A stretch of 64,000 nt of DNA, taken from IMG/VR virus record IMGVR_UViG_3300025117_000034, one strand, 5' to 3'. Numbering within the stretch: the first letter of the stretch is position 1; every line of letters begins with the position of its first letter. Made by a program: the position numbers and the translations under genes. The DNA is from a virus. Lineage: Duplodnaviria; Heunggongvirae; Uroviricota; Caudoviricetes. The notes under the pieces were generated by a model. That model was not told where the DNA came from. It did no database searches and saw only the letters and a list, made by a program, of their open reading frames with translations. Positions 33,675 to 59,418 of this stretch are shown piece after piece.

Positions 33675-33722
33675 GTAGTATCCTCTTACTCGTTATGTGA
33701 TAATGTATAAGTAAAAGGTTGC

Positions 33723-33974
33723 CTATTTAAACCACCATTCTTTATCCTGGTAGCTCTGTCCTATACTCTTATCAGCGTGGCACTTAATGTGACATGTGCA
33801 CTCTGTAAGCTTAACCATCTCTAGCTGCTTGACCACCTGCTTATCCCTGTCAAACATATAGAATCCCCTGCCCTCTACCACGTCAACGAAGTTATCCTCT
33901 ATGTCCTTGCGACCTATAACCACAGTCTGTCCAGGACATATGGATAGGATGAGCTCCTTAATTACATCACTCAT
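33723..33974 (-). CDS. hypothetical protein
   Basis: ORF track, 83 aa. Confidence 0.45.
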   Translation of the reverse strand: MSDVIKELILSICPGQTVVIGRKDIEDNFVDVVEGRGFYMFDRDKQVVKQLEMVKLTECTCHIKCHADKSIGQSYQDKEWWFK

Positions 33975-34200
33975 CTAGATCTAACTCCTTGAATCCAATA
34001 CAGGTCTTAGCGTCAACCTCAGCAGCTTGTACCTCGAACTCACGGAACATACCTTCACGTGGGTTATCAGTCCAGTATGATACCTGATAGGTGATAACGT
34101 TGTTGCGTCCTATAGTTACTCCCACAACAAAGCCAGTGAGCTCAGGGCATAGGACAAAGCTAACCTGTGTTCCGATTGGATAGATCTCTAAGGTTTCCAT
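33967..34200 (-). CDS. hypothetical protein
   Basis: ORF track, 77 aa. Confidence 0.45.
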   Translation of the reverse strand: METLEIYPIGTQVSFVLCPELTGFVVGVTIGRNNVITYQVSYWTDNPREGMFREFEVQAAEVDAKTCIGFKELDLDE

Positions 34201-34243
34201 TTAGTTCTCCTATCTATATTGTACTACTGGCGAGCACAAACTT

Positions 34244-34675
34244 CTACTCTGGATTTGTAGCACCAGGAACAGGGACATTAGTTGGCTTCTGTACACTGAC
34301 ATCAACTGCTCCAGGTACTGGCTTGTTCCCTGCCTTCTTATCGTTAAGGGCCCGCTGTGCACGTTCAAACTGATCCTTGGTTACTGTGGTGGGTACTGGC
34401 ATACCCTGCTCCATCTCACCCATTGGATCCTTAAAGATAACCCCATCAGCAGTGGTCTCGTAAGGCACGTTACGCTCTAGCATATCCATGGTTTCATCAA
34501 GGCTTGCCTCACTGGTTGGATAGGAAGCATTGCTCTTGCTACCTTCCCCGCCAACGAAGTTACCGTGCTGGTCATAGCCACCAGCAGCTGGGTCATCCGC
34601 AGATGTATAGTGTGTGGTCACTGCTTCCTTGACTGACTTAAGTAGCCCACGAATGTCCTTGATCATTGTCCTCAC
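34244..34675 (-). CDS. hypothetical protein
   Basis: ORF track, 143 aa. Promoter-like motif upstream. Confidence 0.5.
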   Translation of the reverse strand: MRTMIKDIRGLLKSVKEAVTTHYTSADDPAAGGYDQHGNFVGGEGSKSNASYPTSEASLDETMDMLERNVPYETTADGVIFKDPMGEMEQGMPVPTTVTKDQFERAQRALNDKKAGNKPVPGAVDVSVQKPTNVPVPGATNPE

Positions 34676-34755
34676 CTCTGTACTTGTTATGATGTAAATG
34701 TATAAGTAAAAAGGGAGATGCCTTGATGGGCACCTCCCCTGTGTACTCAGTGTTG

Positions 34756-35040
34756 TTACGGACGGATGATGCGGCTCTGCTGCTTCTCATGTGCATCCTG
34801 TACTGCGCTCATGTGTAGGTCAAGCACAACCCAGTTAAGCATGCCAGCAATGTCCACAGGTGATAGATTGAACTCGCTCATGTACTTATTGATAGTGGTA
34901 ATGATCTCTACATATGCTTCCTTCTTAGCCATGTTGTACTGAACGAAACGATCAACAGCTGGCTTCTCACTTGCAGCAGCTTCCTCCATGGGTGTTGGCT
35001 GTGTATCTCCACCGATTACTTTGCTCTCATCTTCTGACAT
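34756..35040 (-). CDS. hypothetical protein
   Basis: ORF track, 94 aa. Confidence 0.5.
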   Translation of the reverse strand: MSEDESKVIGGDTQPTPMEEAAASEKPAVDRFVQYNMAKKEAYVEIITTINKYMSEFNLSPVDIAGMLNWVVLDLHMSAVQDAHEKQQSRIIRP

Positions 35041-35070
35041 AACTATCTCCTGTCCGTATTGTTAGTGACT

Positions 35071-35529
35071 CTAACGGTCACTTCTGTTTAGATAATCACG
35101 CTCAGTGTTAACATGGGTCTTGCCATCACCCTCTACAATGACGGTCTGCTCACCACGGATCACTGCTTGCCAGTCAATACTAAGTGCTTGATGCGGTGTG
35201 TTAAGCGGAGCCTCAGTGATTGTGGACGCTGGGTTGTCACCGACTATCTGATACTGTGACTGATAATCCCAACCATAATGATTACCATTGTTCTCGGTGT
35301 TACCATTAGCTTGCTCAGGTAGGCTAATACCAATTGCGTCCTCTACACGACCACGTACTTCCTGCTCAACCCTGTCACGTACCTCTCGACCAATAGCCCT
35401 GCCCATGTCACGCAGGACACCTTTGGTGTAGGTGGTGTCAGTCTTTGTAAGCTTGTGCATCTCATCAGCAAAGGTGGGTGTGTACAGAAGGAATACTGAT
35501 AACGCTGCAACGATAAGACGAGTCTTCAT
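35071..35529 (-). CDS. secreted/periplasmic hypothetical protein (signal peptide)
   Basis: MKTRLIVAALSVFLLYTPTFA signal peptide, then a repeat REVRDRVEQEVRGRVED. Confidence 0.55.
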   Translation of the reverse strand: MKTRLIVAALSVFLLYTPTFADEMHKLTKTDTTYTKGVLRDMGRAIGREVRDRVEQEVRGRVEDAIGISLPEQANGNTENNGNHYGWDYQSQYQIVGDNPASTITEAPLNTPHQALSIDWQAVIRGEQTVIVEGDGKTHVNTERDYLNRSDR

Positions 35530-35597
35530 GTCCGTCTCCTTTCCTCTATGATTATATTATACTACAGTTGTTTATAAATGTCAAGCTGAATTACTAA

Positions 35598-35957
35598 CTA
35601 GGCTCCCATACCAGCTGGTGTTACTGCTGCTGACCCTGGACTGTTAGCTCCAACCATACCGCCTGTTGGAGTCTCTGCCCCCACTGAAGGAGGATTACCT
35701 GGAGGTGACTGAGTGCCACCCTCTGGCCTCTGGGTCTGCTGCTGAGCTTGTGGGTTAGCCTGAACGAACTGCTGGATGGCTTCGCCAATCTCTGTCAAGG
35801 TCTTCACTGCCTGTTCACGAACCGGACCTTCTTTATATGTGGTGCACACTGTAAGCAGCTCTGTGATGTCACGTTTAATGTTGTTAAAGAACTCAAGGGG
35901 AACCCGATCCTTCTCAAGCATCTCTACCAGGTTCTTCATGTTAAACCGTGTTCCCAT
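35598..35957 (-). CDS. hypothetical protein
   Basis: ORF track, 119 aa. Confidence 0.5.
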   Translation of the reverse strand: MGTRFNMKNLVEMLEKDRVPLEFFNNIKRDITELLTVCTTYKEGPVREQAVKTLTEIGEAIQQFVQANPQAQQQTQRPEGGTQSPPGNPPSVGAETPTGGMVGANSPGSAAVTPAGMGA

Positions 35958-36151
35958 GCTTCAACTCCTGAAAATTTTTTAGGTGCTCTTATTCCGTCAC
36001 TGTGATACTAAACAGGATTTTGTATCACGTATTTAAAAGACTTATGACTTCAGTTTTCTAAATCTAAATTGTCTGTTTCCGTCACTGTGATATCTAAATT
36101 TAATAGGTACTAGCCTTAGATGTCACGCAGTAGTGTATAAGAAAATAGTTA

Positions 36152-36748
36152 CTAAGCTACTTTAACTTTACACACCCATGCAGCCTGGAGGAATGGATCA
36201 GCAAGCAGTGGTCGTAGTAGGTATCTCCGGCTACATTCCTCTATATGATTCTCTGTAATCTCGCAGCAAGGCCACACCTTACCACGCATCTCCTTATTAA
36301 AGAATGTCATATCAGGTGCATAGTCATGAGCCATAATAATATCCCCAACCTTAAGGAATTGGGAGAAGTGATTGAACTCACCAATCTTGTTACCATTGTC
36401 GCATAGTAGAACTGTGATGCCATCCTGCCTGATCATATCAGAGATCTCTTTTAGTGTATCACTTGCAAAGATATCCTTGAACCGCATATCAACACCGAGC
36501 TTATCCAGTACTGACTTGTCAAACAATGAGTTAGCAATGTCGTAGGAGATTACAGAGCAACCTGCTGTTAGGCTGTATAAACCAAGGAATGTAGTGAGCC
36601 CACCATTGAGAGCACCTAGCTCAATGACACGAGCTGGCTTCACAGTCTTGAAGAGCATATCAAAAGCCTCAAGAGCATACTCGTTCTGTGACATTGGGTA
36701 CCCAAGGAAGTCAAGCCTACCTGAATTACCAACAACACTATGCTTCAT
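36152..36748 (-). CDS. class I SAM-dependent methyltransferase (CmcI/Methyltransf_24-like)
   Basis: ARVIELGALNGGLTTF resembles motif I. Size and position fit the glycan cluster. Confidence 0.45.
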   Translation of the reverse strand: MKHSVVGNSGRLDFLGYPMSQNEYALEAFDMLFKTVKPARVIELGALNGGLTTFLGLYSLTAGCSVISYDIANSLFDKSVLDKLGVDMRFKDIFASDTLKEISDMIRQDGITVLLCDNGNKIGEFNHFSQFLKVGDIIMAHDYAPDMTFFNKEMRGKVWPCCEITENHIEECSRRYLLRPLLADPFLQAAWVCKVKVA

Positions 36749-37454
36749 ACGTGAACTCCTTTAGCTCAAACACTGGTTTAAACGTGGCATTAGTTGTGAA
36801 TGACTTTGCATTACTGTGTATACCATTGATACCTATATGGTTACTACGTGAGTGACCAGGAACAACATTGAACATATTGTTCCTCTCAATGATCCTTCGT
36901 ATGTTCCAGTCCCAACCACCTGGAGTTCCTGTAGCCTTACCACTTGAGTAATCAAAGTCCCATGTGTTACGCAGATACGTATTCCATCTGTCCTTCCATG
37001 TCATCCATACCCAGCAGGTTAGCAATCCTAATTTTCTAAATGCATATGGGTTATCCTCTTGCACCGTTTCATTCCTACCACTGACAACCATCACATCCTT
37101 CTGATCCTTGAACAACTTATCAGCTGCAGTGAACATATCAATGATATCATTAGATACAATGAAGTCTTCCTCTGCCAGTACTACACTATCTGAATGTTCA
37201 AACCCACGCTCCAAAGCATTCCAGCTGTTCTTTGCACAACCAATGACTCCCTCATTAACATTGATTGTTACATCACCCACTGAAGAGTTATGACAGAACG
37301 AATCAAGGACAGCAATCATCTCCTTGAGCTTGTCAGTCTTCTCTATATTGAATATCATCTTTACCTTATCAAGATTGTTAACTGCTGCCCAGGAATTCAT
37401 AGTCTCAACAAAGTAATCAACTCTGTTGAATGCAGTGAATGTTATGCAAAGCAT
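36738..37454 (-). CDS. glycosyltransferase, GT2-like (GT-A fold)
   Basis: N-terminal CITFTAFNRVDYFVETMNS resembles GT2 IPTYNR. Acidic EED motif. Confidence 0.45.
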   Translation of the reverse strand: MLCITFTAFNRVDYFVETMNSWAAVNNLDKVKMIFNIEKTDKLKEMIAVLDSFCHNSSVGDVTINVNEGVIGCAKNSWNALERGFEHSDSVVLAEEDFIVSNDIIDMFTAADKLFKDQKDVMVVSGRNETVQEDNPYAFRKLGLLTCWVWMTWKDRWNTYLRNTWDFDYSSGKATGTPGGWDWNIRRIIERNNMFNVVPGHSRSNHIGINGIHSNAKSFTTNATFKPVFELKEFTYEA

Positions 37455-38065
37455 GTGGCTCTGTACCCCTCCATGATTACCTCTAGTATGTTCTCATCCT
37501 TTGTAGCCATGAACAGACCACGATCTGTTCTCTCGTTGTCCCGCTGTTCACAATCATGTACCCAGTAATAACTTGGGTCATTAACTATAACGTTGTACAA
37601 CGTTATAGTTAATGCGCAACCACCGAGCTTTAGGTTAACCGAGTTGGTGTCATGAGCTACCAATAGCCTAGGTAGTTCTGGCTTAGCTATGATAGCTTTC
37701 CACTCCTCCTGGGTTGGAGCAAGGCGATGGTCGCTGTCCAGGAACACAACATCAAAGGGTGGGTTGATACGTATGGCATCAGCACCCTTACCATGGAAGA
37801 TCTCATGCCCACCAATAACCTTTATTGCCTGTGGCTGAAAGTTAATGTCAGCGAACATAGCTCTAAGGATATGCCCCTTGTTGGCTGCATCAACGAACAC
37901 AGAGCTCGACACACCCTTCCACGAGCCAGACTCCAATGATGATAGCCATGGCCCACCAACAGGGTTGCTCAACACGTAGTGCATCCACTCTAAATGCCTC
38001 GTGTCAATTGACATACCAATGTCGAAGTCTGTCACACCTAGCTCAGCAAAGTTAATGTTACTCAT
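37442..38065 (-). CDS. methyltransferase-like protein (DVVFLDSDH motif)
   Basis: FDVVFLDSDH resembles class I O-MTase DFVFIDADH. Confidence 0.4.
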   Translation of the reverse strand: MSNINFAELGVTDFDIGMSIDTRHLEWMHYVLSNPVGGPWLSSLESGSWKGVSSSVFVDAANKGHILRAMFADINFQPQAIKVIGGHEIFHGKGADAIRINPPFDVVFLDSDHRLAPTQEEWKAIIAKPELPRLLVAHDTNSVNLKLGGCALTITLYNVIVNDPSYYWVHDCEQRDNERTDRGLFMATKDENILEVIMEGYRATCFA

Positions 38066-38723
38066 TGTGCACGTTCAGTCTGCTCAGTGCCGCAACCCTT
38101 AAGTCCTTGTCCACTGAAGTAAGGTGTGCAAGGAAGTCACCCTCAGCCCATGGATCCAAAGCCAATGGTTGAACAAAAGCTGGCACAGCATTTAGGATAC
38201 GACGATTTAGAATATTAATATAGTACCTTGTGTGTGGCACAGTCTTGAGCACTTCCCTTACTGCACCTTGATCCTGCTCATAGACTGCACGTGAGTACTT
38301 AAGCAAAGAGCTAGCAAGGTCCAGCAGTTCATTACCTCTAGTGGTATTCATCCACACAAAGTTACCCATAGAGAAGTTACTGTAGGGCTGGTCAATAGGA
38401 TGGTTACCCCAGTCAGTAGATGCATACAAGCATTTCTGACCGTCAATGTTATGCAGGGTCTTAATCAGAGTCATGATGTCAATGAACTGATTAGTTATAA
38501 CTGCATCAGCATCAAGCCATAGTACAGCATCATACCCTTGCTGAAACAGTTCCTTGATTAAACGTAGCTTCTGCCAAGATGGCAGACCAAACTCTTCTGG
38601 GTAGTCAACGTTACACTTAAATGATAGCCCGTACTTCTCAGCGTACCATTCTTTACCCTGCTTGGTACGTGCACCCATCCATGCAAAGTCTTCCCTGTAA
38701 CCTGTAAGCAATACGGTATTCAT
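38058..38723 (-). CDS. nucleotide-sugar glycosyltransferase (GT-A, DxD)
   Basis: YDAVLWLDADAV carries a DxD motif. Confidence 0.5.
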   Translation of the reverse strand: MNTVLLTGYREDFAWMGARTKQGKEWYAEKYGLSFKCNVDYPEEFGLPSWQKLRLIKELFQQGYDAVLWLDADAVITNQFIDIMTLIKTLHNIDGQKCLYASTDWGNHPIDQPYSNFSMGNFVWMNTTRGNELLDLASSLLKYSRAVYEQDQGAVREVLKTVPHTRYYINILNRRILNAVPAFVQPLALDPWAEGDFLAHLTSVDKDLRVAALSRLNVHNE

Positions 38724-38731
38724 GTAATCTC

Positions 38732-39463: not shown

Positions 39464-39672
39464 TTTTTGTGCTCCTTCTTAATCTGCAACATATTCTTGG
39501 ATCTGGTCTTTAGCCAATGCTTGGACACTTTATCACCACACTGAAGGCACACTATGAACTTCTCTTCATTTAGTTTCTGGTGGAATGTTGTACGCTGTAC
39601 TGCTACTTCTACACTACCCCTGTCAGGGTTTTCTATTAGTTTACCACAGTCATCACAGAACGTAGCTTGCAT
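39460..39672 (-). CDS. zinc-ribbon mini-protein
   Basis: CDDCGK...CLQCGDK. Confidence 0.45.
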   Translation of the reverse strand: MQATFCDDCGKLIENPDRGSVEVAVQRTTFHQKLNEEKFIVCLQCGDKVSKHWLKTRSKNMLQIKKEHKK

Positions 39673-39711
39673 ACCATCTCCTCTGTCCTCTTACATTATA
39701 CTACTAGGAGA

Positions 39712-41091: not shown

Positions 41092-41099
41092 CTATCTAC

Positions 41100-42089: not shown

Positions 42090-42101
42090 TTGTACACCTA
42101 T

Positions 42102-45100
42102 CTACCGACGTGTATTGTACTGTAGTGCACGGAAGATAACTGACTCATTACAAACCTGGCAGCTCTCTTCCTTCTTTGGCTCATCCTTAGCTGGCTCTTC
42201 CACTTCTAGTTCATCAGTGTCTGCATCAGCAACGTCAGTGTCAACATCCTCTTCATTGTCTGACTCTGCATCTGCAGTGGCTTCCTCTGCGTCACTGATC
42301 AGTGCATCAAGATCTTCAGCAAGACCATCACGCTTCTCTTTCATCTTGGCAATGTCAGCTGCATCTGCACCAGCTGCCTCTGCCTCAGAGATCTTGGTGT
42401 CAACTTCGGCAAGCTTGTCGGCTGCTGAGCCAGCTTCATCCCAAGCATCCTCACCAATGTCCATGCTGTCAAACTCATCTGATGGTGCGCTCTCTGGAAC
42501 TGCAGGCACATCCATAGCCAAGCTTGACTCTACCTCACCTGCTGGAGAATCCATACTCTGTGAACCGCCAATGCCGCTGAACTCTTCTGTTGCTTTCTTC
42601 ATCTTGCTCTCTCCTCGTAATGTCGCCTGTGATCTGCTTGGTCCGAACATAGCAGATAAGTGCCCAGCCTGAACTGGGTTACCTTGTGCATCTGTGGTTA
42701 GTACGTTGCCTTTGTTGTCAACTTCTTTGCCCTTTACATCACCAACATAACTGAATGGTTCCTCTGTATCATCACCAGTCTTCTTGTAGTTTACGTTGGT
42801 CTGCCACAAGAAGCTGTTAACTACACGACCTAGATCCTTCAGGCTCTTCTCAAGCAACCCTCTCGAGGTAAGGTCAAAGCTAGGTAGCTTACTAACATCT
42901 ATAATAAACTCCTTCTTTAGTTCCTCTGTAAGAGTGGGGGTTGTGCCTGACGGTACTTCCTCAGTTGCTCCCCAATTGTACGCAAGAAGTTCATCGGCCT
43001 CAACACCACTTGACAATGCACTCTTTAGATACTCATAGTCAAAGGTCTTCTCGGTCTCTACCTGCTTGTCTGATACCATCTTGTTAATGTTTTCTACTTC
43101 CTTGTAGAGTACTTCAAATGATCTTAACAGGCGATTGGTTACACGGTACAGTCTCTCGTAGGTTGAAGAGGATAGCTCAAGGAAGAACTTGATTGCGTTG
43201 TCCATCTTCTTTGGGCCAGTCAAGCCAGCGAGCTGCTGGTTGAGTAGATCAAGCAGACGGGCTTCTTCCTTGGAAGTAGCAACCCTGGCCTTCTTACCTA
43301 CACGTTTTAGATAATCACTAATCACTGCATCAATCTGTTCCGCAGCCTGTACAACTGTCTGAGTCTGTAGCTCACCAGTTTCCTTCTTACCATCAGTTGT
43401 GAACTGGAAGTTCTTCAATGAGCTTCTGAAATCTCTATATGGCTGACCATACTCAAGAAGGTTAACTGTGCCCTCTGGTGTGTCAAAGACAAAGAAATCT
43501 TTCTTCATAGACTTGCCAAGCACAGGGAAGATATCGCTGATGTACACGTCACCTGCAGGTGTTTCAGATACACCTAGGTATTTTGTTCCTGTGCCTGCTG
43601 CTGTCTTAAATGCATCCTTGAAAGCATCATTGATATCAGCACCCTTTGATGATTCCTTCTCAGCTGCAAGTGTTGCATTGGCTACACGCTCGTAGTCAAG
43701 GGTGCTCTCGAACCTTCTGTATGCATCACGGATCTCATTGGCATCCTGTACGAACTGATCCTTAGCTGTGCGTAGGTTGTTAAGAGCAGTGTTAAAGTCT
43801 GCGCCCATGTCTAGCACATCATCAGCTACATCCTTCTTTACTTTGGCACGGGCTTCAGCAAAGATGCTGACACTCTCGTACTTAAGTGGCTTGCCCTGCA
43901 TGTACGCTTCCATACAGGTGAACCATGTGTACACTGCGCTGATGCTATATGTGGCATCATGCACACCAACAACAGTGTTGTTATCAGTCAGATATACAAC
44001 TGACCAAGCTCCAGGCTTACGGATGAAGCGCAGCTTAGTAACAAGGACATCAGCTGCTTTGCCCTTGATCCTCAGGCTGTCAACGATCATCTTCCTTGCC
44101 TGTGCAGCATCTGAAGAACCAGACTTGGATGACTGCACTGCACTGGCAATGTTACGCTGAGCCAAGCTTACACTGAATGGTGTATAGTCGGAGTACTTGC
44201 GTACAATATCATTGTAGTACCCAACTAGATACAAAGACATATTGCGTAGAATAACATTATGGGTCTCAACAGGAACTGCATCTCTAACCTGCTTACCCTC
44301 TTTCTGCACGAACTCTTTCATCACATTTGCTTTGGCTGGGTTCTTGGTATCTGGAACCTTGTCACCAATGCTGAACTCAATACTGAGGATCTTACCAGAG
44401 TTCTTTGAGATGACTGCATTGCTGAAGTCAGTGGCAATCTTCTTGCCGATTGACGAGACAAAGTGTTTAGCTACGCCCTTCTTGGTGGCTAGTAGTTCTT
44501 CGCTCTCACCAAAGGATTCATTGGGAATCTCAAATGCTTTCTGTGCATTCTTGTCACCCTCAACAAATGCCTTGGTGGCAACCTGCATATCACTCAAGCA
44601 CAAGCTCTGGTCATAGTTAAGGAAGCTTGAAGCCACAGACTTATCCTTGAAGAAGTCAAATACTTCCTTTGGTGATGCTGTGTTCTTACGCTTCTGGTAC
44701 TCATCTTCCTTCTCGCCAGCCTGCTTTGGAACTGACAACTCAAGGTTCTTACCATCAGCTGACCAGCGAATAGGAAAGGTTCCAGGGGCAGCAACAGCCA
44801 TACGCATGGAGATCTGTCTGACAATCTCAAACACTTTCATGCTTGACTCTAACAAAGCATTGTTGGCTGCAGCAAGCTTCCGGATAGAAACCTTTAGTGC
44901 GGCTATGAACTTCTGATCAACTTCTTTATGGCTAATGATAATATCTTTGTATGTATGTAACAGGTCTACCTGTTCTTTAACCACACCACGATTGGTGGTC
45001 TGCTCAGTGTTAGCCTGCTCGTAAGCATCCCACAGCTTCTGTGCGTCCATTCCCTCGTAGGTATCAAACAGCTTATCGCCAGCTCGTGAGCTGACAGCAT

Positions 45101-46118
45101 CATCCTTTGAGTACTTGTACACAAAGTGGAGGGTTGTTACTGGACTCTGGCGACCAACCTTCTTACTATATGATCTCCAGTTAAGAGTATAGAAGTCACC
45201 ACTTGATGCAGAGATCTTCTGTGCCCCAGTCTTGTCAGCATTGGGATCAAGGTTCTCACCTGTCTCAATAGCTGCCTGCTGAGCAACATAAAGATCCTCA
45301 AGGGTTCTGGTGTCATCAATCTGCTTCTGTGATGTACCTTTCTCCTTGACCTTTGTCTTGGCTGCTTTCTTATCTTCCTTACCCTTCTTATAGATATCAA
45401 TGTATTTGTAGTAGTCGTTGTTCTTTGTATCAATAGCATCAAGCAAACGCTTGGTGAAGTACTCGTTGCGCTCAATATCATTTAGATATACATTAGCTGT
45501 TGTAATACTGGACTCTGATGGTTCAGGTCTTAGTGCACCAAAGTCCTGACCATACCGTGATTTCAGAATTGACTTGAAAGCATTGAGCTTACCTGCAACT
45601 GTCTTGCCCTCTCCAACCCTCTCAATGCCGATCTCATCACGAATATAATCAAGCAGTGCTTCCCTGCCCTTCAACGCAATCTTATCAGCTACTGATGCAT
45701 TGCCAACAATGCCAGCCAGCTCAGCTAGCTGGTTGTCGTCACTGATCAAACTGGCTGCATCTCTTACCTGCTTCTTAAGTATGGCCAGCTTCTTAACCAG
45801 GTCAGGGATCTCCTGGGCTTTGGCTGTTGAGATATTAATGAAGTCAAAGTACTCCTTTGGAACCCCAGCTTCAACAAGGGCATTGGATACTTCGCTGTAG
45901 GACTGATCATCAATGACTGAAGCTGCAATGTCTGCTGTTAGCTTGTTCTTGTCTTTGCCATAGCGAGCAACACGGTCTGCACCTAGGATCTTATCACTTA
46001 CTTTGGCTAGGGCACTTGAGTCTAAATCCTTTAGTAGATTGGAGATGACAGACTTCTTGTACTCAAAAAGTCCAGGAGCTGCCTCAAGCGCAATTGTAGT
46101 ATCTTTTGTTTCAGACAT
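42102..46118 (-). CDS. large (1338 aa) hypothetical protein with acidic C-terminal tail, probable virion protein
   Basis: Single uninterrupted ORF. Promoter-like GTATATAACTAAAC motif upstream. Acidic DEEDVDTDVADADTDE tail with CQVCNES. Confidence 0.6.
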   Translation of the reverse strand: MSETKDTTIALEAAPGLFEYKKSVISNLLKDLDSSALAKVSDKILGADRVARYGKDKNKLTADIAASVIDDQSYSEVSNALVEAGVPKEYFDFINISTAKAQEIPDLVKKLAILKKQVRDAASLISDDNQLAELAGIVGNASVADKIALKGREALLDYIRDEIGIERVGEGKTVAGKLNAFKSILKSRYGQDFGALRPEPSESSITTANVYLNDIERNEYFTKRLLDAIDTKNNDYYKYIDIYKKGKEDKKAAKTKVKEKGTSQKQIDDTRTLEDLYVAQQAAIETGENLDPNADKTGAQKISASSGDFYTLNWRSYSKKVGRQSPVTTLHFVYKYSKDDAVSSRAGDKLFDTYEGMDAQKLWDAYEQANTEQTTNRGVVKEQVDLLHTYKDIIISHKEVDQKFIAALKVSIRKLAAANNALLESSMKVFEIVRQISMRMAVAAPGTFPIRWSADGKNLELSVPKQAGEKEDEYQKRKNTASPKEVFDFFKDKSVASSFLNYDQSLCLSDMQVATKAFVEGDKNAQKAFEIPNESFGESEELLATKKGVAKHFVSSIGKKIATDFSNAVISKNSGKILSIEFSIGDKVPDTKNPAKANVMKEFVQKEGKQVRDAVPVETHNVILRNMSLYLVGYYNDIVRKYSDYTPFSVSLAQRNIASAVQSSKSGSSDAAQARKMIVDSLRIKGKAADVLVTKLRFIRKPGAWSVVYLTDNNTVVGVHDATYSISAVYTWFTCMEAYMQGKPLKYESVSIFAEARAKVKKDVADDVLDMGADFNTALNNLRTAKDQFVQDANEIRDAYRRFESTLDYERVANATLAAEKESSKGADINDAFKDAFKTAAGTGTKYLGVSETPAGDVYISDIFPVLGKSMKKDFFVFDTPEGTVNLLEYGQPYRDFRSSLKNFQFTTDGKKETGELQTQTVVQAAEQIDAVISDYLKRVGKKARVATSKEEARLLDLLNQQLAGLTGPKKMDNAIKFFLELSSSTYERLYRVTNRLLRSFEVLYKEVENINKMVSDKQVETEKTFDYEYLKSALSSGVEADELLAYNWGATEEVPSGTTPTLTEELKKEFIIDVSKLPSFDLTSRGLLEKSLKDLGRVVNSFLWQTNVNYKKTGDDTEEPFSYVGDVKGKEVDNKGNVLTTDAQGNPVQAGHLSAMFGPSRSQATLRGESKMKKATEEFSGIGGSQSMDSPAGEVESSLAMDVPAVPESAPSDEFDSMDIGEDAWDEAGSAADKLAEVDTKISEAEAAGADAADIAKMKEKRDGLAEDLDALISDAEEATADAESDNEEDVDTDVADADTDELEVEEPAKDEPKKEESCQVCNESVIFRALQYNTRR

Positions 46119-46158
46119 TTAAGTACCTCTTAGTATACTTACTTACAGAAGTATATAA

Positions 46159-46503
46159 CTAAACCGTCTTTAGACCTAGATCACTTGGAACAGTTACCAT
46201 GACCCCACCGATGTTAACTGGGATACCTTGATCCTCACCACAGCTCTCATCATCAACCACATCTACAGCAGCTGGCATAGCATCCATTCCCATAGCCTGA
46301 GCCATCTGCAGCATGGCTGGATCCTTGATTGATGCTGTGCTGTTGGATACATTGACAACAATGATGATAGGCTGCACACCATCTGCACCACCCATCATTG
46401 CCATATCCTGATCCATTATATCCTGAGGGAACTGCTGCTGACCATGCCCCAGAAGACTCTGGAGCTGGTCAATGGGAACTACTTGAACCTGTGGCTGAGC
46501 CAT
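46159..46503 (-). CDS. hypothetical protein
   Basis: ORF track, 114 aa. Confidence 0.5.
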   Translation of the reverse strand: MAQPQVQVVPIDQLQSLLGHGQQQFPQDIMDQDMAMMGGADGVQPIIIVVNVSNSTASIKDPAMLQMAQAMGMDAMPAAVDVVDDESCGEDQGIPVNIGGVMVTVPSDLGLKTV

Positions 46504-47636: not shown

Positions 47637-47646
47637 TAGTTTAATC

Positions 47647-48372: not shown

Positions 48373-48450
48373 GAGGGCTCCTACCTATGAAAAAAGGAGC
48401 TGAGCTTTTACGCCCAGCTCCTTTATTTGAATCAAGTTACTTACTAACTA

Positions 48451-49932
48451 CTACACCCACCGGATGCTGCTCTTCACGAAGAAGCCGTCGTTCAGCATTG
48501 TCTGGGCATTCTTTGTGATCACGCCACGTTCATATTCCATGTTCCCTACTGGATATGGATCAGTGACCATGATTGGAATGAATGGAAGCCATGCATAACC
48601 GGCTTCGATCCAGCTGTTACCCTTTGCGCCCATGACATACTCATTGTCACCATACGCTAGGTTACGGTAGATGTCCCAACGATCCATCAACCGACCAACC
48701 TTGTGTGGACCTGTAGGTGGCTGCATGCCGTTGTTCTCAACCTTGAACATTGTGTTAGGCATTGACATGATCAGGTTGCAAACTTCGTTACCTGCACCCA
48801 GCCATGTGCCCTGGATACGCCGTGTGGTCTTGTAGATCTGTGAACTTTCGCGCTGTAGATGCTTCACGAAGTCCTGGGCGCGTTCCATTTCGCTGATGAA
48901 CACTGGGTTAGCTGCTAGGAAGCGGTCTGCACCGGCTAGAGTTGATGCAGGAGCCTGTGCCATAATGTCGTCCAGAACTAGCTGGTCGATTTCGGCGCGG
49001 AGCTCACCGGCGAGAATTGCGATTGCTTCGTCGTCAATGCTCTTGCCATAGTGCTGCTCTAGTTCGAATGCTGAGTCAAGCAACCAATTCATTGCTAGCT
49101 GACGCTTCTGTGCTACCACGACTGCCTCACGGATTGCGAGCTTCACGCGGCCAGTGTTGGCTGGGCGACTTTCGAAGTCGAACTCATAGCTTGCAACTGT
49201 TAGTGCATTGGTCTGAGGAACGAACGCAACACCAACGTTGAAGGTACCAATTGCCTGGGTGTTGTCATGAACGATTGTTACTGTGTCAACGCCATCAGTG
49301 ATGGTGAATGAACTAGCTGCTGCAGTGCCAGTGAAGGTACGAACAGCTGCACCATCCCAGTAACCAACAGTAACAGTAGCCCCAGTCTTGAATGGGAAAT
49401 GCTCGAAGCTGTGTTCATAGTTGGTACCAATTGCACCAAAGGCTGCAATAGGCTCGCCCTGAACGATGTCTGAGCTGAAGTACTTATAGGCATTACCATT
49501 GTTACGGAGACCAGTAACCTTCTGTGCATGGAACATTGTGTCGCCTGGGCGAATGATACCCTGGCCTGTTTCATACTGGTAGTCTAGCCAGAAGACCTGA
49601 CCAGTCTTACGATCCATAGGCTGAACGCTAACAATGTCGTCTAGGATTGAGCTTGGGATCAGTGCGCTGATCAGCTCGAAACCATGACGAATGTAGGTGC
49701 CTAGGTCTGAAGTGGTTAGCCCTTCAGTCTTTAGGTAACCGCGTTTCTTTGCAATCCCTTCGAAGTAAGCCTGGGTATTGGTGAGGCACTGCCCTAGAAC
49801 TGCTTCAACGTTCTCAGGTAGGTTGCGGCCATGAGCTGTCTTGTAGAAGCTCTGGACTGCTTCCAGGTGTTTCTTGAATTTGCTGTTGGCAGCTTTGCAA
49901 CCCTGCTCAACTAGCTGTGTGTGATTTGCCAT
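48451..49932 (-). CDS. major capsid protein, T4 gp23-like (HK97 fold)
   Basis: LDDIVSVQPMDRKTGQVFWLDYQY matches T4 gp23 FDICGVQPMNSPTGQVFALRAVYG. VAQKRQLAMNWLLDSAFELE matches IEAKSRQLKAAYSIELAQDL. Promoter-like motif about 110 nt upstream. Confidence 0.85.
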   Translation of the reverse strand: MANHTQLVEQGCKAANSKFKKHLEAVQSFYKTAHGRNLPENVEAVLGQCLTNTQAYFEGIAKKRGYLKTEGLTTSDLGTYIRHGFELISALIPSSILDDIVSVQPMDRKTGQVFWLDYQYETGQGIIRPGDTMFHAQKVTGLRNNGNAYKYFSSDIVQGEPIAAFGAIGTNYEHSFEHFPFKTGATVTVGYWDGAAVRTFTGTAAASSFTITDGVDTVTIVHDNTQAIGTFNVGVAFVPQTNALTVASYEFDFESRPANTGRVKLAIREAVVVAQKRQLAMNWLLDSAFELEQHYGKSIDDEAIAILAGELRAEIDQLVLDDIMAQAPASTLAGADRFLAANPVFISEMERAQDFVKHLQRESSQIYKTTRRIQGTWLGAGNEVCNLIMSMPNTMFKVENNGMQPPTGPHKVGRLMDRWDIYRNLAYGDNEYVMGAKGNSWIEAGYAWLPFIPIMVTDPYPVGNMEYERGVITKNAQTMLNDGFFVKSSIRWV

Positions 49933-50041
49933 CTGTGTTCTCCCTTTTGGGTTTTAGTTTTCACTGCTTTTTATAACTAGGTGGTTTCGCTCTTGCCTCA
50001 AGTAGAAAGTCTCACACTTAAGAACTTTGCTAACCAAATAG

Positions 50042-50056
50042 GTATATAAGTAATTC
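50042..50056 (-). promoter_or_regulatory. conserved promoter-like motif GTATATAAGTAATTC (plus-strand reading) ~110 nt upstream of the MCP gene
   Basis: The same 15-mer occurs at 59217..59231. Related ATGTATAAGTAA occurs at 33703, 34698, 54632, 46151 and 36133, always just upstream of minus-strand gene starts. Confidence 0.45.
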
Positions 50057-50064
50057 AGAGAATG

Positions 50065-53780: not shown

Positions 53781-53783
53781 ATC

Positions 53784-54602
53784 TTATAGATCCCATTCTT
53801 TAGCTGAGGTATCTTCTATTATCCCTGACTTAACAAGCTTGCTCTCCTGGCCTATAACAGAAATGCCAGCTTCACTTATGTCCTTCATATCAATAGAGTT
53901 ACTACCTGTTGCATTTAGATTACCACCAATGCGCATAGGCAAACCAATAGCACTGGTAAGACCACAGTTATTCAATGTTAGGTCACCCTCGATAATTCCA
54001 ACTGGACGTTCAGCAACGCCGCCTGACACACTACCCTTCTTGAACTTCATGTTGGTTAGTGTCAAGCTGCTGTCAAGTCTCTGCGGCATACCAGCTAGAG
54101 TGAACTCCCGCTGCATGTTTGGTGTTACAATAATCTCAATTAGGCCCTTACCAGTTGGCTGTGCAAAACCAGTGAAGTCCTTAGCCATAATGTATACACT
54201 GTTCAGTTTGATATCACCAGACACCTTTGTTGGGAATCCAGCAAAGGACTTAATGACACAGTTGTTCAGTGTGAAGTTACCGTTGATCTCTTGAGGAAAG
54301 TTCTGGAATGAGGCTAGAACAGCATTAGATATTACTAATGAAACATCACATGCGTCAATCTTAACTGGAAGAATACCATTGGTTAAGGTTGGATTTGTTA
54401 GTCTTAGTTCCTTCTTGCCAACCTGCCTCTGACCTGAAGGAAGATCCTCCACAGGAGCAAAGTTACCATCCTGCAGGGTTAGTACATCTGTCTCTTGATT
54501 GTAATCAGCGAAGGCTAAATTCTTGATATCATTACCTTTGTCTGAGTCAGCTGCACCAATAGCAATAAGACCAAGTATCATATCTTTAGGGGATCGTGCC
54601 AT
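53784..54602 (-). CDS. leucine-rich-repeat-like protein
   Basis: Repeated ~22-aa units of the form L.LNNC.I.SFAGFP..V.GD..L. Confidence 0.4.
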   Translation of the reverse strand: MARSPKDMILGLIAIGAADSDKGNDIKNLAFADYNQETDVLTLQDGNFAPVEDLPSGQRQVGKKELRLTNPTLTNGILPVKIDACDVSLVISNAVLASFQNFPQEINGNFTLNNCVIKSFAGFPTKVSGDIKLNSVYIMAKDFTGFAQPTGKGLIEIIVTPNMQREFTLAGMPQRLDSSLTLTNMKFKKGSVSGGVAERPVGIIEGDLTLNNCGLTSAIGLPMRIGGNLNATGSNSIDMKDISEAGISVIGQESKLVKSGIIEDTSAKEWDL

Positions 54603-54840
54603 TTATGTCTCCTGATGTAACTACACAACATATGTATAAGTAAGGGAAAAAAAGAAGCTAGGGGGTTACCCTAGCTTCACGCTGACGGATTGGTTTGACT
54701 CTGTACTATATAGCTTGCCACACTCAGTACAACGCTTTACTCCAGGTGTTCTTGTGTCTTCGAACAATGCACATACATGTTTGTCACAAGCGCACGTATC
54801 CTTCCTGCACCAACCTTCGTTGTTACCACAACAGTTCATA

Positions 54841-55029
54841 CTATTTGCCCTCCTGTTCCTTTAGGGCATCCTCTGCTGTACGTGTAATCTTTAGCTTTGC
54901 ATCGTACTGGTCTAAAGGAAGAACAAACTTTGTTTCCCCACGGTTAATTGCGTCAAGGATATTGGGGATAACATCACTTGCTAACTGAAGAATCAACTTA
55001 ACTAGTTCAGGATCAATCTTAGTAGACAT
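54841..55029 (-). CDS. hypothetical mini-protein
   Basis: ORF track, 62 aa. Confidence 0.35.
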   Translation of the reverse strand: MSTKIDPELVKLILQLASDVIPNILDAINRGETKFVLPLDQYDAKLKITRTAEDALKEQEGK

Positions 55030-55042
55030 GTTCTATCTCCTT

Positions 55043-55498
55043 TTACTGTTGGACGGCAGTAAGAAGATTCTGCCCTTCAACAAGAATACCTGTGATGTTT
55101 GCAAGTGCTGAATTAATAAGAGCTTCCTTAGCTGACATCTTACTTTCAATCTGTGATACTGATGCTGCATCTCCAGCCTGATCTGCCGTAGCAAGCTGCT
55201 GTAACATCCCAGCGTAAACCTTTAATACCTCTGTTAATGCATTCTGAGATGCTCTGAACTTAGCATCAACTGAACTCCAACTGTTCCACTGTGCATCTGT
55301 CATCATACCAGCAATCTTTGCTTTAGCAAATGCATCTTGGGTATTATACCATGTAGCACGTGTGGTCATCATGGTATTAGTGCTAACCTGCAGAAACTTG
55401 TTTGTTACCTGACCATCCTGAATATAGTACTTTGTACCAACACATCCTGGAGCAGCTAGAATAGCACAGAGTAGAACCAAACCCAACAGTTTCTTCAT
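55043..55498 (-). CDS. lipoprotein (candidate o-spanin-position gene)
   Basis: MKKLLGLVLLCAILAAPGC signal plus lipobox. Confidence 0.5.
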   Translation of the reverse strand: MKKLLGLVLLCAILAAPGCVGTKYYIQDGQVTNKFLQVSTNTMMTTRATWYNTQDAFAKAKIAGMMTDAQWNSWSSVDAKFRASQNALTEVLKVYAGMLQQLATADQAGDAASVSQIESKMSAKEALINSALANITGILVEGQNLLTAVQQ

Positions 55499-55507
55499 AC
55501 GTTCCTC

Positions 55508-55918
55508 CTAGCCCTTTGATGGCTTAGCATAAGTTACAATCTTTGCAATGATAACAGGCATGTACTCTTTACCAAGAATAGCTAGAATATCCATACCCTT
55601 TGTCTTGCCCAGATTGATTGCAATCTTAGTTGCCTCGTCACGTGCTTCAAGGATATCCTTCTTTTTAAGCTTGCCCTTCTTTGCCTTCAACGCACGAACA
55701 GTTTCAACGTACACCTGCTCAACTGCAACCTCTACTAGCTTGTAGGCTTCCTCATACAGATCGTTCTTCTTACGGAGTGCCTCTGTCTTCTTTGCTGCCC
55801 ACATCTTAAAAGCTGCCCAAACTGGGGCACCAACTACTGCAAGAACGCCAAACACATACTGCCAAAGATCTGCTTGGGTCAATGCATTTACTAATGCTGC
55901 CTTAATTTCTGGTGTCAT
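55508..55918 (-). CDS. type II membrane coiled-coil protein (i-spanin-like)
   Basis: N-terminal TM LWQYVFGVLAVVGAPVWAAF, then a K/E-rich helical periplasmic domain. Confidence 0.4.
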   Translation of the reverse strand: MTPEIKAALVNALTQADLWQYVFGVLAVVGAPVWAAFKMWAAKKTEALRKKNDLYEEAYKLVEVAVEQVYVETVRALKAKKGKLKKKDILEARDEATKIAINLGKTKGMDILAILGKEYMPVIIAKIVTYAKPSKG

Positions 55919-56178
55919 TTAACACCTCCTAGAATAGTATACAAATAAATTGATACCAAGAATAACATAATGCCAGCAAGATCTGCAAATAAATCCCATA
56001 AATCACAGCAGTGTGGTGGGTTATAGTGATCCCACATTTCCTTTGCTGCGCCAATACCCAGAGCTACAGCGCACACAAACAACACTGAACTGAGTGATTG
56101 TCCATACAGCAGGACCCAGCAGATTATGAAGCTTACCAAGGCGTGAAGAATTTTGTCCTTAAATTTCATGTCTACCAT
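55915..56178 (-). CDS. small multi-TM protein (holin-like)
   Basis: 87 aa with 3 hydrophobic segments. ATGA-coupled upstream of the i-spanin-like gene. Confidence 0.4.
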   Translation of the reverse strand: MVDMKFKDKILHALVSFIICWVLLYGQSLSSVLFVCAVALGIGAAKEMWDHYNPPHCCDLWDLFADLAGIMLFLVSIYLYTILGGVK

Positions 56179-56453
56179 GTGAACCAGGATTTAATTATGC
56201 TCCATGCAGATGGCTTCTTGTCCTCATCTGACATGAAATCTCTAACTGCGTTATCCATGGCTCTCTTTCTATTAAATGAAAACGAGCTATACAGCATCTT
56301 TATGATGGAGTGCAGCTCTTTACTGCACTCTGAACAAAGTTCCAGATCACCTAAGTATACCAGCTTATTATCTAAATCGTTCTTAGTCAAAAGCTTAAAA
56401 CACTTATCACAGATTGTCTTTTTCATTGAGCACACCTCTAACCCTTTGCTCAA
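56172..56453 (-). CDS. zinc-ribbon protein
   Basis: CDKC...CSEC. Confidence 0.45.
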   Translation of the reverse strand: MSKGLEVCSMKKTICDKCFKLLTKNDLDNKLVYLGDLELCSECSKELHSIIKMLYSSFSFNRKRAMDNAVRDFMSDEDKKPSAWSIIKSWFTW

Positions 56454-56468
56454 TGTATAACTAAAAAG

Positions 56469-58781
56469 TTATGCAGCACCAACCATAAGTTCGAAGGCTC
56501 TGACTGCAGCACCCCATGTAAACATCTGAGCCTTCTTAATACCAGCCTCTGACTTCTTCTTCAGTGTCTCACGATCATCATACGAGTTACGCATATGAGC
56601 TACAAGTGAGTCCATACTTGGCTGAAGATTGAACCAGCCATTGTCTGTATCCTTTGCATCAATGTATGCTGGAGCTCCACAAGCAACTGTGCTGCAGGTT
56701 ACCAAGTAACTTGTATCCTTTGAAGTGAAATCCATACTACCACCACCGGCTGTGATAATAGCTGGTGTACCTACAGCCATAGCCTCAAGAGCGCATAGGT
56801 TGAACCCTTCTCCACGGTTGGGACTAACTACTACATTGGCCCTCTTGTACAACCCAGCGATAGCTTCCTGTGGCATGAATGAATCCATCACAGTAATGCG
56901 CGGATAATTCTCCTTGCCCTGCATGTGCTGCCGAACCTGCTGCACAAAGTTAGGCATGTTAGGAGCCTGCAGTGTCTTGATAACAAGGGCAACATTGTCT
57001 GACTTGCTAAATGCTTTTGTATATGCATCCAGAACATAGCTAACACCCTTGCGGCTATCAACTGACATTAGACTACCAAGCATAAGGATTACAAATGTAT
57101 CTTTCTTGATGTCAGAGAAATCATGTGGCGTGGCATCAGTGTTGAACACTGACTGGTTGTACCCCAGACCCATGCCTTTAACCTTTTCTTTTGGAACACC
57201 TGAGCCAGTGAATACAAACTCCTCATGCTTGGACAAAGGCATAACATAGTGCAAACCTGGGTTCCATGATTCCTGGACCCACGACTTAGGAAGGTTCTGC
57301 CATTCATAAGGAACAAGATTTACATTTGTCCGACCAACCATAAGCTTACTGTCTAGTGGATAGGATACTCTCAGGTGGTAATCAAAGTTACGGTGTGCAT
57401 AGCTATTGTAGCATGCTGTACGTGCTAGCTCCTTGTTCTGGTTCCAGTGATCCACTGTGAAGTTAGTGTGCTCTACAACATACCCACGTTTGCTGAACTC
57501 CTCAGCTAGTGCCCTGCACACTACTCCGTAAGAGAATGTTGGGCTATCATTACCCTGGATAAGAATGCTACGAGCCGTACTACCAATAAAACACCCTCTT
57601 GGCTCATTTTCTACACAAACTATATTCTCAACCAAATCAACCCACTGCTTCTGAATTACTGGTGCACTATACTTTGCAATGATGTACTCACGCATCGCAG
57701 TCTTTTCTTCTTCAATGGAAACATTGTTCTTCCATGTCTGGTACATCACCTCGAGTGCTTCAGCTGCTTTGTCCGTGTCCATCAATGGACGATCAACACC
57801 AAGGTCTGGCTGGATGTCAAAGGCAATTGGATCAATAAGAACTCCATGGTTGTCAATGATCTCAGGCATAGTTGAGCTCTTGGTAGTGATATTGACAACA
57901 CCACATGCCATTGTCTCAATCAGTGTTACTCCGAATCCTTCTGACGCTGATGGCAAACAATGTACATCTGCCATGTTCATTAGGCTGACCAGTTCTTCTG
58001 TGGAGCACTGCAGCTTACTTGATAGACCACATGAGTCCTTCACACCAAAACGTTCAATCAGGTAAGGAAGGTTGTACCCTGTCTGAAGATTAGTTGACAC
58101 AGTACTCACGTCAGTGTGCATAATAAGAACTGCATCCTTCTTGTCTTTTACGAACTTAGCCCACGCACGAATAAGAAGATCAGGACGCTTTCTCCACTGG
58201 TTACGCGAAACAAATAGTGCTACAAACTTGTCCTCGAAGCCACCCTTCTTCTTAAGCTCCTTCTTGTCTGCTACAGGCTTGAACACTTCAGTATCAACAC
58301 CCAGATAAATAGTTGAAACAGTGTGCTCATTAGGATGTTTATCTAAATACGTGCTATATATTCTCTTGCCATAATCAGCCATGAATACAAGATGCTTACG
58401 GAACCAGATCTGGCTATGAACTGCAGGCTCATTGATTGGCTCGCAGTCAACCGCCACCCAGTGAATACAACGGTTACGCCACTTCTCAGGCAGCTTTGCA
58501 ATATCCATTGTCCAGCTAAACTCAGCAACTGAAATAATTACATCTGGCTGCTCAACAAGAATGATGTGATAGATCTCGTGGTACTCACTTGTACCCTTCA
58601 CACCATATAGCTTCCAATGTGGCTGGAACATTGAGATACCTTGGTCCTTTGCATTGAACCCAATGGACACAACCTCGCTACCATTGTTAATGAACCCGTT
58701 TGCAATTAGTCTGATCTGGTTTGAGAACCCTGTGTGTTGAGCCGGAGAATCGCCAATGATTAGAATCTTACGCACATGCAT
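56469..58781 (-). CDS. dual-domain GT4 (GT-B) glycosyltransferase
   Basis: Two E-x7-E GT4 signatures: EGFGVTLIETMACGV and EGFNLCALEAMAVGTPAI. Confidence 0.75.
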   Translation of the reverse strand: MHVRKILIIGDSPAQHTGFSNQIRLIANGFINNGSEVVSIGFNAKDQGISMFQPHWKLYGVKGTSEYHEIYHIILVEQPDVIISVAEFSWTMDIAKLPEKWRNRCIHWVAVDCEPINEPAVHSQIWFRKHLVFMADYGKRIYSTYLDKHPNEHTVSTIYLGVDTEVFKPVADKKELKKKGGFEDKFVALFVSRNQWRKRPDLLIRAWAKFVKDKKDAVLIMHTDVSTVSTNLQTGYNLPYLIERFGVKDSCGLSSKLQCSTEELVSLMNMADVHCLPSASEGFGVTLIETMACGVVNITTKSSTMPEIIDNHGVLIDPIAFDIQPDLGVDRPLMDTDKAAEALEVMYQTWKNNVSIEEEKTAMREYIIAKYSAPVIQKQWVDLVENIVCVENEPRGCFIGSTARSILIQGNDSPTFSYGVVCRALAEEFSKRGYVVEHTNFTVDHWNQNKELARTACYNSYAHRNFDYHLRVSYPLDSKLMVGRTNVNLVPYEWQNLPKSWVQESWNPGLHYVMPLSKHEEFVFTGSGVPKEKVKGMGLGYNQSVFNTDATPHDFSDIKKDTFVILMLGSLMSVDSRKGVSYVLDAYTKAFSKSDNVALVIKTLQAPNMPNFVQQVRQHMQGKENYPRITVMDSFMPQEAIAGLYKRANVVVSPNRGEGFNLCALEAMAVGTPAIITAGGGSMDFTSKDTSYLVTCSTVACGAPAYIDAKDTDNGWFNLQPSMDSLVAHMRNSYDDRETLKKKSEAGIKKAQMFTWGAAVRAFELMVGAA

Positions 58782-58841
58782 CTCCTATGTGGTTTTTACT
58801 TACACTTATATTATACTAGGTAGGAGGTATTTTTTAAAGTG

Positions 58842-59183
58842 TTACTTTAAGATTAGTTTGTATAATGCAGCAGCAATGGCACCTATTGTGGTTGTGCCTA
58901 AAATCATAAGGAGTTTGTTATGCCAGGATACCTGCTGCTGTACTGCAATGAACTCTGGGTTGTACTTCTCGCAATGTGCATCTCTTTTATTTACTCTCTC
59001 AGTTAGGTTCTTAATCTCTGTCTGCATACCAACTAGAGTTGAGATAGCTTCTCTTACTTCCTTGGCAAAGGAGTGCGCCATCTCACGTATCTCCCTGATA
59101 TCCTGCGAGATATTACCTACAGTGTTCTCGATGTTGTTAACCTGGGACTTCACCGCGTTCATCTCTTGATCATCAGGTGCCAT
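58842..59183 (-). CDS. coiled-coil protein with C-terminal TM
   Basis: ORF track, 113 aa. Promoter-like GTATATAAGTAATTC motif upstream. Confidence 0.5.
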   Translation of the reverse strand: MAPDDQEMNAVKSQVNNIENTVGNISQDIREIREMAHSFAKEVREAISTLVGMQTEIKNLTERVNKRDAHCEKYNPEFIAVQQQVSWHNKLLMILGTTTIGAIAAALYKLILK

Positions 59184-59418
59184 TGTTGTTCCCTCGTGCT
59201 GTAGTTATTGCCTGAGTATATAAGTAATTCTAAAACAAGGTGTCAATTTGTAACCATTGCTCTGCGGTAAAGTCCCCATCAACAAGGGAATAGCCAAGCT
59301 CACAGGTAACAGCGAGTAATGACACTCCTGTTAGTTCCTTTATAGCGGTGTGAAGTTCCTCGGATATAACCCACGAGCTATTGTTGAATTTTCGTTCTTC
59401 TCTCATATGTCTGCTCCA

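Follow-up and report, generated by a model that had tools for sequence, protein, structure and literature searches.

We describe a short repeated element in a 64,000-nucleotide (nt) stretch of phage DNA, IMG/VR record IMGVR_UViG_3300025117_000034 (the whole stretch is called the window below), and propose, with a probability of roughly 0.6, that it is the late promoter of this phage: a lineage-specific, -10-only element on the coding strand, recognised by a gp55-like sigma factor of the phage. That the element is a promoter in the sense direction, whichever factor reads it, we regard as highly probable from the patterns in the sequence. The source is an uncultivated T4-like phage of ~139.6 kilobases (kb), assembled repeatedly from groundwater metagenomes, with morphogenesis genes of T4 type (Gp23 capsid, Portal_T4, Peptidase_S77 prohead protease and gp13). 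The minus strand carries every sizeable open reading frame (ORF) of the window, and intergenic DNA accounts for only 7.2% of the sequence. By looking up proteins encoded in the window we extended it into its flanks, which gave a composite of 98,191 nt, in coding orientation, covering 98 kb of the ~139.6-kb genome.

A strand-specific intergenic motif in the structural module

In coding-strand (minus-strand) orientation the motif is TTA(C/G)TTATA(C/T)A(C/T)T, searched for as TTACTTATAYAY. Alignment of nine sites shows conservation across 13 positions (TTAsTTATAyAyT; s, C or G; y, C or T), with unconserved flanks on both sides; T1, T2, T5, T6, A7, T8, A9 and A11 are invariant. No -35 element is apparent in these nine sites, as the 25 positions upstream of the motif stand at background information content. 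The conserved block can be divided into a -10-like hexamer, TAYAYT, with conserved A2 and T6, and an upstream extension of seven bases, TTAsTTA.

With up to one mismatch allowed, TTACTTATAYAY occurs eight times in the window against 1.34 expected, a number reached in none of 100 shuffles, and all eight copies are on the minus strand and intergenic. Read on the + strand, the core TATAAGTAA is present at 33706, 34701, 50045, 54635 and 59219, with all five copies on that strand, 0.60 expected and none of 100 shuffles reaching five, while GTATAAGTAA has three copies (0.12 expected). The 9-mer alone is not enriched when one mismatch is allowed (20 copies, 16 expected), so what carries the signal is the exact core together with the longer consensus. 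In the composite the exact 11-mer TTA[CG]TTATA[CT]A has eight copies on the coding strand and none on the opposite one; a first-order Markov model predicts 0.11 and 0.14 respectively. Seven of these eight are intergenic; the eighth, outside the window, lies in the last 300 nt of a gene for a protein of 653 amino acids (aa), 306 nt before the next gene. An earlier note on this DNA, made from the sequence, had listed most of the copies and had suggested a wider search. Every copy it quoted exists, although its list omitted the one at 56453 and the one it placed at 59217 begins at 59216. Against the refuting condition that it named, a motif equally common inside genes, all eight window copies fall in the small intergenic fraction.

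The copies at 33703 and 34698 share extra flanking bases, and this longer common context, also pointed out in the earlier note, is real. Gene duplication as its origin was rejected, as the proteins encoded downstream are unrelated, and no longer repeated element containing the motif copies was found. Shared flanks of this kind might be looked for if the motif were a chance repeat or a functionless remnant of duplicated or mobile DNA, an explanation to which we give next to no credence: the exact copies exceed expectation by far and keep to one strand, the window copies are without exception intergenic, the flanking genes are unrelated, and at most sites the likeness is lost a few bases beyond the core. 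Searching the literature for the motif strings gave coincidental matches only.

The placement of the motif is equally restricted. All exact copies and all window copies lie between 33.7 and 65.7 kb in window coordinates, which corresponds to the structural (morphogenesis) module, and the composite contains none in the upstream replication block and none in the 45 kb downstream, which hold small ORFs, metabolic genes and others. The units headed by the motif are the 113-aa gene, a run of six small genes, the operon comprising the 272-aa, portal, 148-aa and protease genes, the capsid gene and the 1338-aa gene, together with three small genes near 34-36 kb, so the sites stand upstream of late (virion) genes, as those of T4 do. 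Gene pairs that have no such signal between them overlap or are less than 15 nt apart.

Spacing to the downstream gene is regular. At six of the eight window copies, 26-32 nt separate the end of the motif from a start codon bearing a GAGG/AGGAG Shine-Dalgarno sequence, the remaining leaders being 109 and 175 nt long (Table 1); the range of 30-110 nt given in the earlier note thus stands except at 36133, the site with the 175-nt leader. Spacers of 40-63 nt consist of the motif, a further 15-20 nt or so and the ribosome site, a layout that is as expected for a -10 element with a start ~7 nt downstream and a short leader. At two of the eight sites (54632 and 34698) an intrinsic terminator directly precedes the motif, leaving ~44 nt from the terminator tail to the ATG, in which the motif is the sole conserved element. 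These hairpins are separate elements from the motif, which is itself unstructured and is no intrinsic terminator, and apart from them no RNA structure was found at the motif sites. A weak variant with three mismatches in the leader of the capsid gene (49969) may be a second, proximal promoter of that gene.

A second, probable promoter family and a gp55-like candidate sigma factor

K-mer enrichment in the spacers brought out a second intergenic family, tAGTAyAATrTAAG, often accompanied by a TTGACA-like or TTTAAA-like -35 element ~17 nt upstream. It occurs throughout the window and also before the gene for P0006, a sigma-like protein considered below (TGGTATAAT promoter), and its member at 35556-35584 is a perfect TTGACA-17-TATAAT (pattern TTGACA-N17-TAGTATAAT). 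To judge from these sequences, the family probably represents host sigma-70-type (early) promoters. Some members end only 8-10 nt before an ATG, which suggests nearly leaderless mRNAs.

The contrast with the motif of the structural module is clear. Host sigma-70 promoters likewise have a TA...T hexamer with A2 and T6 and likewise lie in spacers upstream of genes, but the motif has neither a -35 element nor a TG/TAG extension, carries the invariant TTAsTTA instead and is confined to the structural module. The full host arrangement (-35 TTGACA, a spacer of 16-18 nt, and a -10 TATAAT or TGn-extended element) is not found at the motif sites, and a scanner for the sigma-70 consensus gave no hit in the motif register at any of them.

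The phage encodes proteins that could read such an element. The gene for P0006 (150 aa) lies ~4.5 kb past the high-coordinate end of the window, immediately behind that of a clamp-loader homologue, and the protein gives a weak match to Sigma70_r2. No close homologue of it was found, and an exhaustive HMMER search returned 61 distant relatives, with 37 of the 55 aligned matching Sigma70_r2. Its AlphaFold model (mean predicted local distance difference test score, pLDDT, 84) consists of a sigma region-2 domain and one C-terminal helix; the top Foldseek matches are to sigma region 2 and the closest structural match is T4 gp55. Five IMG/VR loci of P0006 relatives belong to low-GC phages and have no common motif, and so are uninformative. 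The 98 kb examined yielded no RNA polymerase gene.

We favour P0006 as the reader, because a region-2-only factor fits a one-element promoter without a -35 element, as in T4. In the mechanism that we propose, the host RNA polymerase core would carry P0006 as a phage-encoded, region-2-only, gp55-like sigma factor, and this complex would bind and melt the single element and start transcription ~7 nt downstream. The resulting leaders would be ~20-25 nt long, Shine-Dalgarno sequence included, and the sequence CA(A)TAAC, common to three leaders (33703, 34698 and 59216), would sit at the expected start. The terminators directly upstream at two sites would insulate the late units from read-through. 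Initiation at the motif, the reading factor and the timing are all what we infer from the arrangement. The claim of the earlier note that the promoter is phage-specific likewise depends on the gp55-like sigma encoded outside the window. Its broader proposal, a promoter upstream of structural genes, remains the best-supported explanation, since the copies lie between genes, point the same way as these, are limited to the morphogenesis module, mostly keep a 26-32 nt gap, in two cases adjoin terminators, contrast with the sigma-70-like family and belong to a phage with sigma factors of its own.

Alternative readings and comparison with known systems

Several observations weigh against the proposed reading. 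The first concern the factor: in sequence, P0006 and gp55 are only weakly similar (hhalign probability 19%), no homologue of gp33 or of the clamp gp45 was found among the neighbouring ORFs, and the phage encodes a second sigma, P0068, which could be the reader instead. P0068 (169 aa) has regions 2 and 4 and is extracytoplasmic function (ECF)-like; it is similar to families of phage sigma factors and scores above the Pfam cutoff for Sigma70_r4. A sense promoter read by P0068, or by the host sigma-70 holoenzyme with a phage activator such as the 145-aa protein adjoining P0006, which has a weak Mor-family match (E 7e-4), is in our view unlikely, though a contender. It would agree with the A2 and T6 that TAYAYT keeps from the sigma-70 -10 hexamer and with the TTGACA found 17 nt upstream of TTATAT at 59216. 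The example of phiEco32 gp36, a two-domain factor whose promoters nevertheless show a -10-type consensus only (PMC12276001), also counts in its favour. Such a reader is harder to reconcile with the lack of any conserved -35-like position or conserved dyad upstream of the motif and with the different shape of the well-conserved sigma-70-like family in the same genome, to which the silence of the sigma-70 scanner may be added, and a single-element promoter is most simply matched to a region-2-only factor such as P0006.

A second set of observations concerns orientation, which the sequence alone does not fix, as the TATA core comes close to being a palindrome. The non-coding-strand reading, TATAAGTA, matches the T4 late box TATAAATA at seven of eight positions. 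The T4 likeness reported in the earlier note is therefore sound on that strand but not on the coding strand, on which any promoter of these genes must be read and where the sites are TATACATT or TATATACT and match at 5-6 of eight. The single canonical TATAAATA on the coding strand in 98 kb is in the oppositely oriented tail-fibre block, away from late-gene starts, and is unused. The non-coding strand also reads ATATAAGTA at two sites, a string which we take to be the consensus nonamer of yeast mitochondrial promoters; this identity with a promoter of the single-subunit (T7/mitochondrial) polymerase type is on the non-coding strand. The same string occurs within the duplex of the yeast mitochondrial 14S rRNA promoter (PMC4558008). 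AATGTA, the phiEco32 element, is confined to the + (non-coding) strand, where three sites have it (33703, 34698 and 56453).

Taken together with the presence of a gp55-like protein and of an A-rich tract after the motif on the + strand, the T4 and yeast likenesses could point to a promoter on that strand (TnTATAAsTAA), a T4-like late box whose transcripts would run antisense into the 3' ends of genes upstream. We judge this very improbable. There are no genes or consistent ORFs downstream of the sites on the + strand, the regular gap to minus-strand starts and the extra spacer would serve no purpose, the order of terminator then motif is sensible for sense transcription only, and all late genes would be left without a promoter. 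For these reasons we treat the non-coding-strand likenesses to T4, yeast and phiEco32 as consequences of an A/T-rich core.

The long spacers present a third difficulty, because there the motif adjoins the upstream stop and not the downstream start. Indeed, at most sites, long spacers included, it begins 0-12 nt after the upstream stop codon, and it is AU-rich and predicted to be mostly unpaired. These properties would suit a signal at the RNA level, UUACUUAUAYAY, acting as a processing or endonuclease site, a translational-repressor site or a 3'-end signal of the upstream gene, and T4-type phages do use the sequence-specific RNA regulators RegA and RegB. An RNA signal is nonetheless improbable, given that two sites follow a strong terminator and would be missing from most upstream transcripts, that 26-32 nt before the AUG is too far for a site occluding the ribosome, and that RNase E-type sites seldom show 11-13 conserved nt in the absence of accompanying structure. 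Moreover, no promoter whatever would then be left, after the terminators, for the portal/protease operon and for the capsid gene. An untidiness for a strictly late promoter arises at 30-36 kb, where units headed by the motif alternate with sigma-70-like promoters, so that the class may be better described as middle/late.

The comparative record, finally, offers little. Contigs of the phage itself are all at least 99.93% identical and give no comparative information, and the nearest relative, with 50% capsid identity, is represented by a contig of 1.9 kb with only 41 nt upstream of the capsid gene. The motif is missing from 80 loci (1.25 megabases) belonging to distant relatives with 28% identity or less. 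The lineage is remote and without cultured relatives: the best matches of the capsid protein among isolated phages are ~27% identical, it is at most 28% identical to any entry in the phage collections searched, and only five homologues at E below 1e-30 were retrieved from 5.8 billion proteins. Megablast of 8 kb against a phage collection gave no phage match, and no close relative was found in IMG/VR.

Among known systems, the late promoters of T4 are the closest to the promoter proposed here. They too have a single A/T-rich -10-type element without a -35 element, placed before head and structural genes, and in the T4 system (gp55, gp33 and the gp45 sliding clamp) the sigma gene adjoins replication and clamp-loader genes, as does that of P0006. 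The motif differs in being longer (11-13 nt) and in its partial agreement with TATAAATA, so that the 8-bp T4 box does not stand at about -10 on the non-template strand; the similarity of P0006 to gp55 is marginal, and no counterparts of gp33 and gp45 were recognised among the neighbouring ORFs. A second parallel is offered by phiEco32, whose middle and late promoters carry AATGTA centred at -11.5 and are read by the phage sigma gp36 (PMC12276001). In that phage, as proposed here, a divergent phage protein of the sigma-70 family redirects the host core to one short element in the -10 region, and host-type promoters likewise serve early genes. The differences are that gp36 depends on gp79 and has an N- and a C-terminal domain, region 4 being absent from P0006, that the lineage, a podovirus, is unrelated, and that AATGTA is not found at -11.5 on the non-template strand of our sites. 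For the large myovirus rV5, a late-promoter motif, TggTAaAAtA, has similarly been inferred (PMC3606486) from aligned upstream sequences of late genes and read as a late promoter from sequence alone, but rV5 has no gp55, gp33 or gp45 homologues and its motif resembles an extended -10 element for host sigma.

We offer more tentatively, as somewhat short of an even chance, the view that, in this lineage of ~140-kb groundwater phages, a deeply divergent gp55 relative (150 aa, region 2 only, no close sequence homologues) evolved to read a single-element promoter, TTAsTTATAyAyT, that is longer than the T4 box and unlike it. Were this to be true, the gp55 class would have acquired another specificity independently of the first, with the T4 box and the TTAsTTATAyAyT box forming a natural pair for asking how a region-2-only sigma selects DNA. 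If our main proposal is correct, the motif would show where late transcription units begin in phages that have no cultured relatives, and so aid the annotation of such phages. The new promoter sequence and its new gp55-like sigma would then make a testable pair, possibly of use as an orthogonal expression part, and would widen the known specificity range of region-2-only sigma factors. The kind of viral gene switch is familiar, and no new principle of gene control is involved.

Coordinates and other features of the phage genome

The positions of the motif copies, their variants and the associated features are collected in Table 1. The weak variants at 31570 and 61168 are listed as possible only.

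Table 1. Motif copies and other features, in window coordinates unless a locus (L) is given; gaps are counted between motif end and start codon.
Feature	Coordinates	Strand	Context
Motif TTACTTATATAC	59216..59227	-	2 nt after stop of upstream 58-aa ORF; 32 nt before ATG
Gene downstream of 59216 motif	58842-59183	-	113 aa; weak minor-head-protein match
Motif TTAGTTATACAT	56453..56464	-	5 nt after stop of 770-aa glycosyltransferase gene; 26 nt before ATG of 84-aa gene, first of six small genes
Motif TTACTTATACAT	54632..54643	-	3 nt after terminator U-tract; 29 nt before ATG of 272-aa gene, which heads the 272-aa, portal (Portal_T4), 148-aa and prohead protease (Peptidase_S77) block
Intrinsic terminator	54647..54678	-	10-bp stem, T7 tail; -17.4 kcal/mol, z -4.4; directly upstream of 54632 motif
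Motif TTACTTATATAC	50042..50053	-	12 nt after protease stop; 109 nt before major capsid ATG
Weak variant CTAGTTATAAAA, 3 mismatches	49969..49980	-	capsid-gene leader, ~35 nt before ATG
Major capsid gene (Gp23 family)	48451-49932	-	downstream of 50042 motif
Motif TTAGTTATATAC	46151..46162	-	overlaps TAG stop of 114-aa gene; 32 nt before ATG of 1338-aa gene
1338-aa gene	42102-46118	-	downstream of 46151 motif
Motif TTTCTTATACAC, 1 mismatch	36133..36144	-	8 nt after stop codon; 175 nt before 119-aa gene
Motif TTACTTATACAT	34698..34709	-	abuts terminator U-tract; 31 nt before ATG of 140-aa gene
Intrinsic terminator	34708..34740	-	12-pair stem, T5 tail; -25.3 kcal/mol, z -6.2; directly upstream of 34698 motif
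Motif TTACTTATACAT	33703..33714	-	10 nt after stop codon; 28 nt before ATG of 130-aa gene
130-aa gene	33282-33674	-	downstream of 33703 motif
Possible weak variant ACAGTTATACAT, 2 mismatches	31570..31581	-	directly after stop codon; upstream of tRNA (31390-31457) and NUDIX gene
Possible weak variant GTAGTTATATGC, 2 mismatches	61168..61179	-	overlaps stop of 798-aa gene; head of 140-nt spacer before 538-aa gene
tAGTAyAATrTAAG family	58803-58818, 39690-39703, 35556-35584, 34214-34227, 32935-32948, 30356-30370, 28638-28652, 13258-13271, 7552-7566	-	intergenic motif
P0006 (150 aa) and 145-aa Mor-like protein	L004 4844-5296 and 5298-5735		~4.3-4.7 kb beyond window position 64000
P0068 (169 aa)	L003 11212-11721		~9 kb beyond window position 1
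TGTACATAAAGAGAATATG start-site context	25955-25982, 26071-26098, 27417-27441, 27891-27918, 28330-28356, 29101-29135, 29388-29414	+	before many small ORFs
Three tRNA genes	7588-7663, 7002-7081, 31390-31457	-	tRNA-Met by ARAGORN; two more above Rfam tRNA threshold

The leader downstream of the 36133 motif contains two copies of a separate repeat, TATCACAGTGACGGAA. An element of 21-42 nt has three intergenic copies on the + strand of the window (24640-24681, 35974-36015 and 36072-36092), two of them within this 175-nt leader. Its coding-strand sequence is GTTTAGTATCAC(A/T)GT(G/C)ACGGAA..GAGCAC..AAAAAAT, with an internal palindrome, TCACnGTGA, and it is possibly an operator or else a small RNA element. 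A start-site context, roughly TGTACATAAAGAGAATATG on the coding strand, recurs in the cluster of small ORFs at 26-29.5 kb, and could be either a common ribosome or regulatory site or a sign that these small genes are paralogous.

Beyond the window, the oppositely oriented tail-fibre block begins ~17.9 kb past its low end; a single metagenome scan aimed at extending the sequence there did not detect the phage. The switch in orientation lies at L018 18787-20510, where genes for a 517-aa tail-collar-domain protein and a 1429-aa protein, on the opposite strand, converge on a DnaB-like helicase gene. Upstream of the replication genes, also outside the window, a 693-nt non-coding region (L020 144-836) is partly very A/T-rich and contains two repeats of ~45 nt (ACTATAATAGTAATAATAA...ATAGATAATAACAAG), which make it a candidate replication origin or regulatory region.

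Accessory genes are found in window positions 1-18000 and in L003/L018. They include nicotinamide adenine dinucleotide (NAD) salvage genes, encoding a nicotinate phosphoribosyltransferase (NAPRTase), an NAD synthase and an isochorismatase-like protein, as well as genes for ThiF-like, radical SAM, NUDIX and Band_7 proteins and an RNA ligase. A metallo-beta-lactamase resembling the anti-Pycsar protein Apyc1 is a counter-defence candidate. Finally, a 341-aa ORF (17132-18157, minus strand) contains internal tandem DNA repeats, with self-matches that are 82-89% identical at offsets that are multiples of ~18 nt.

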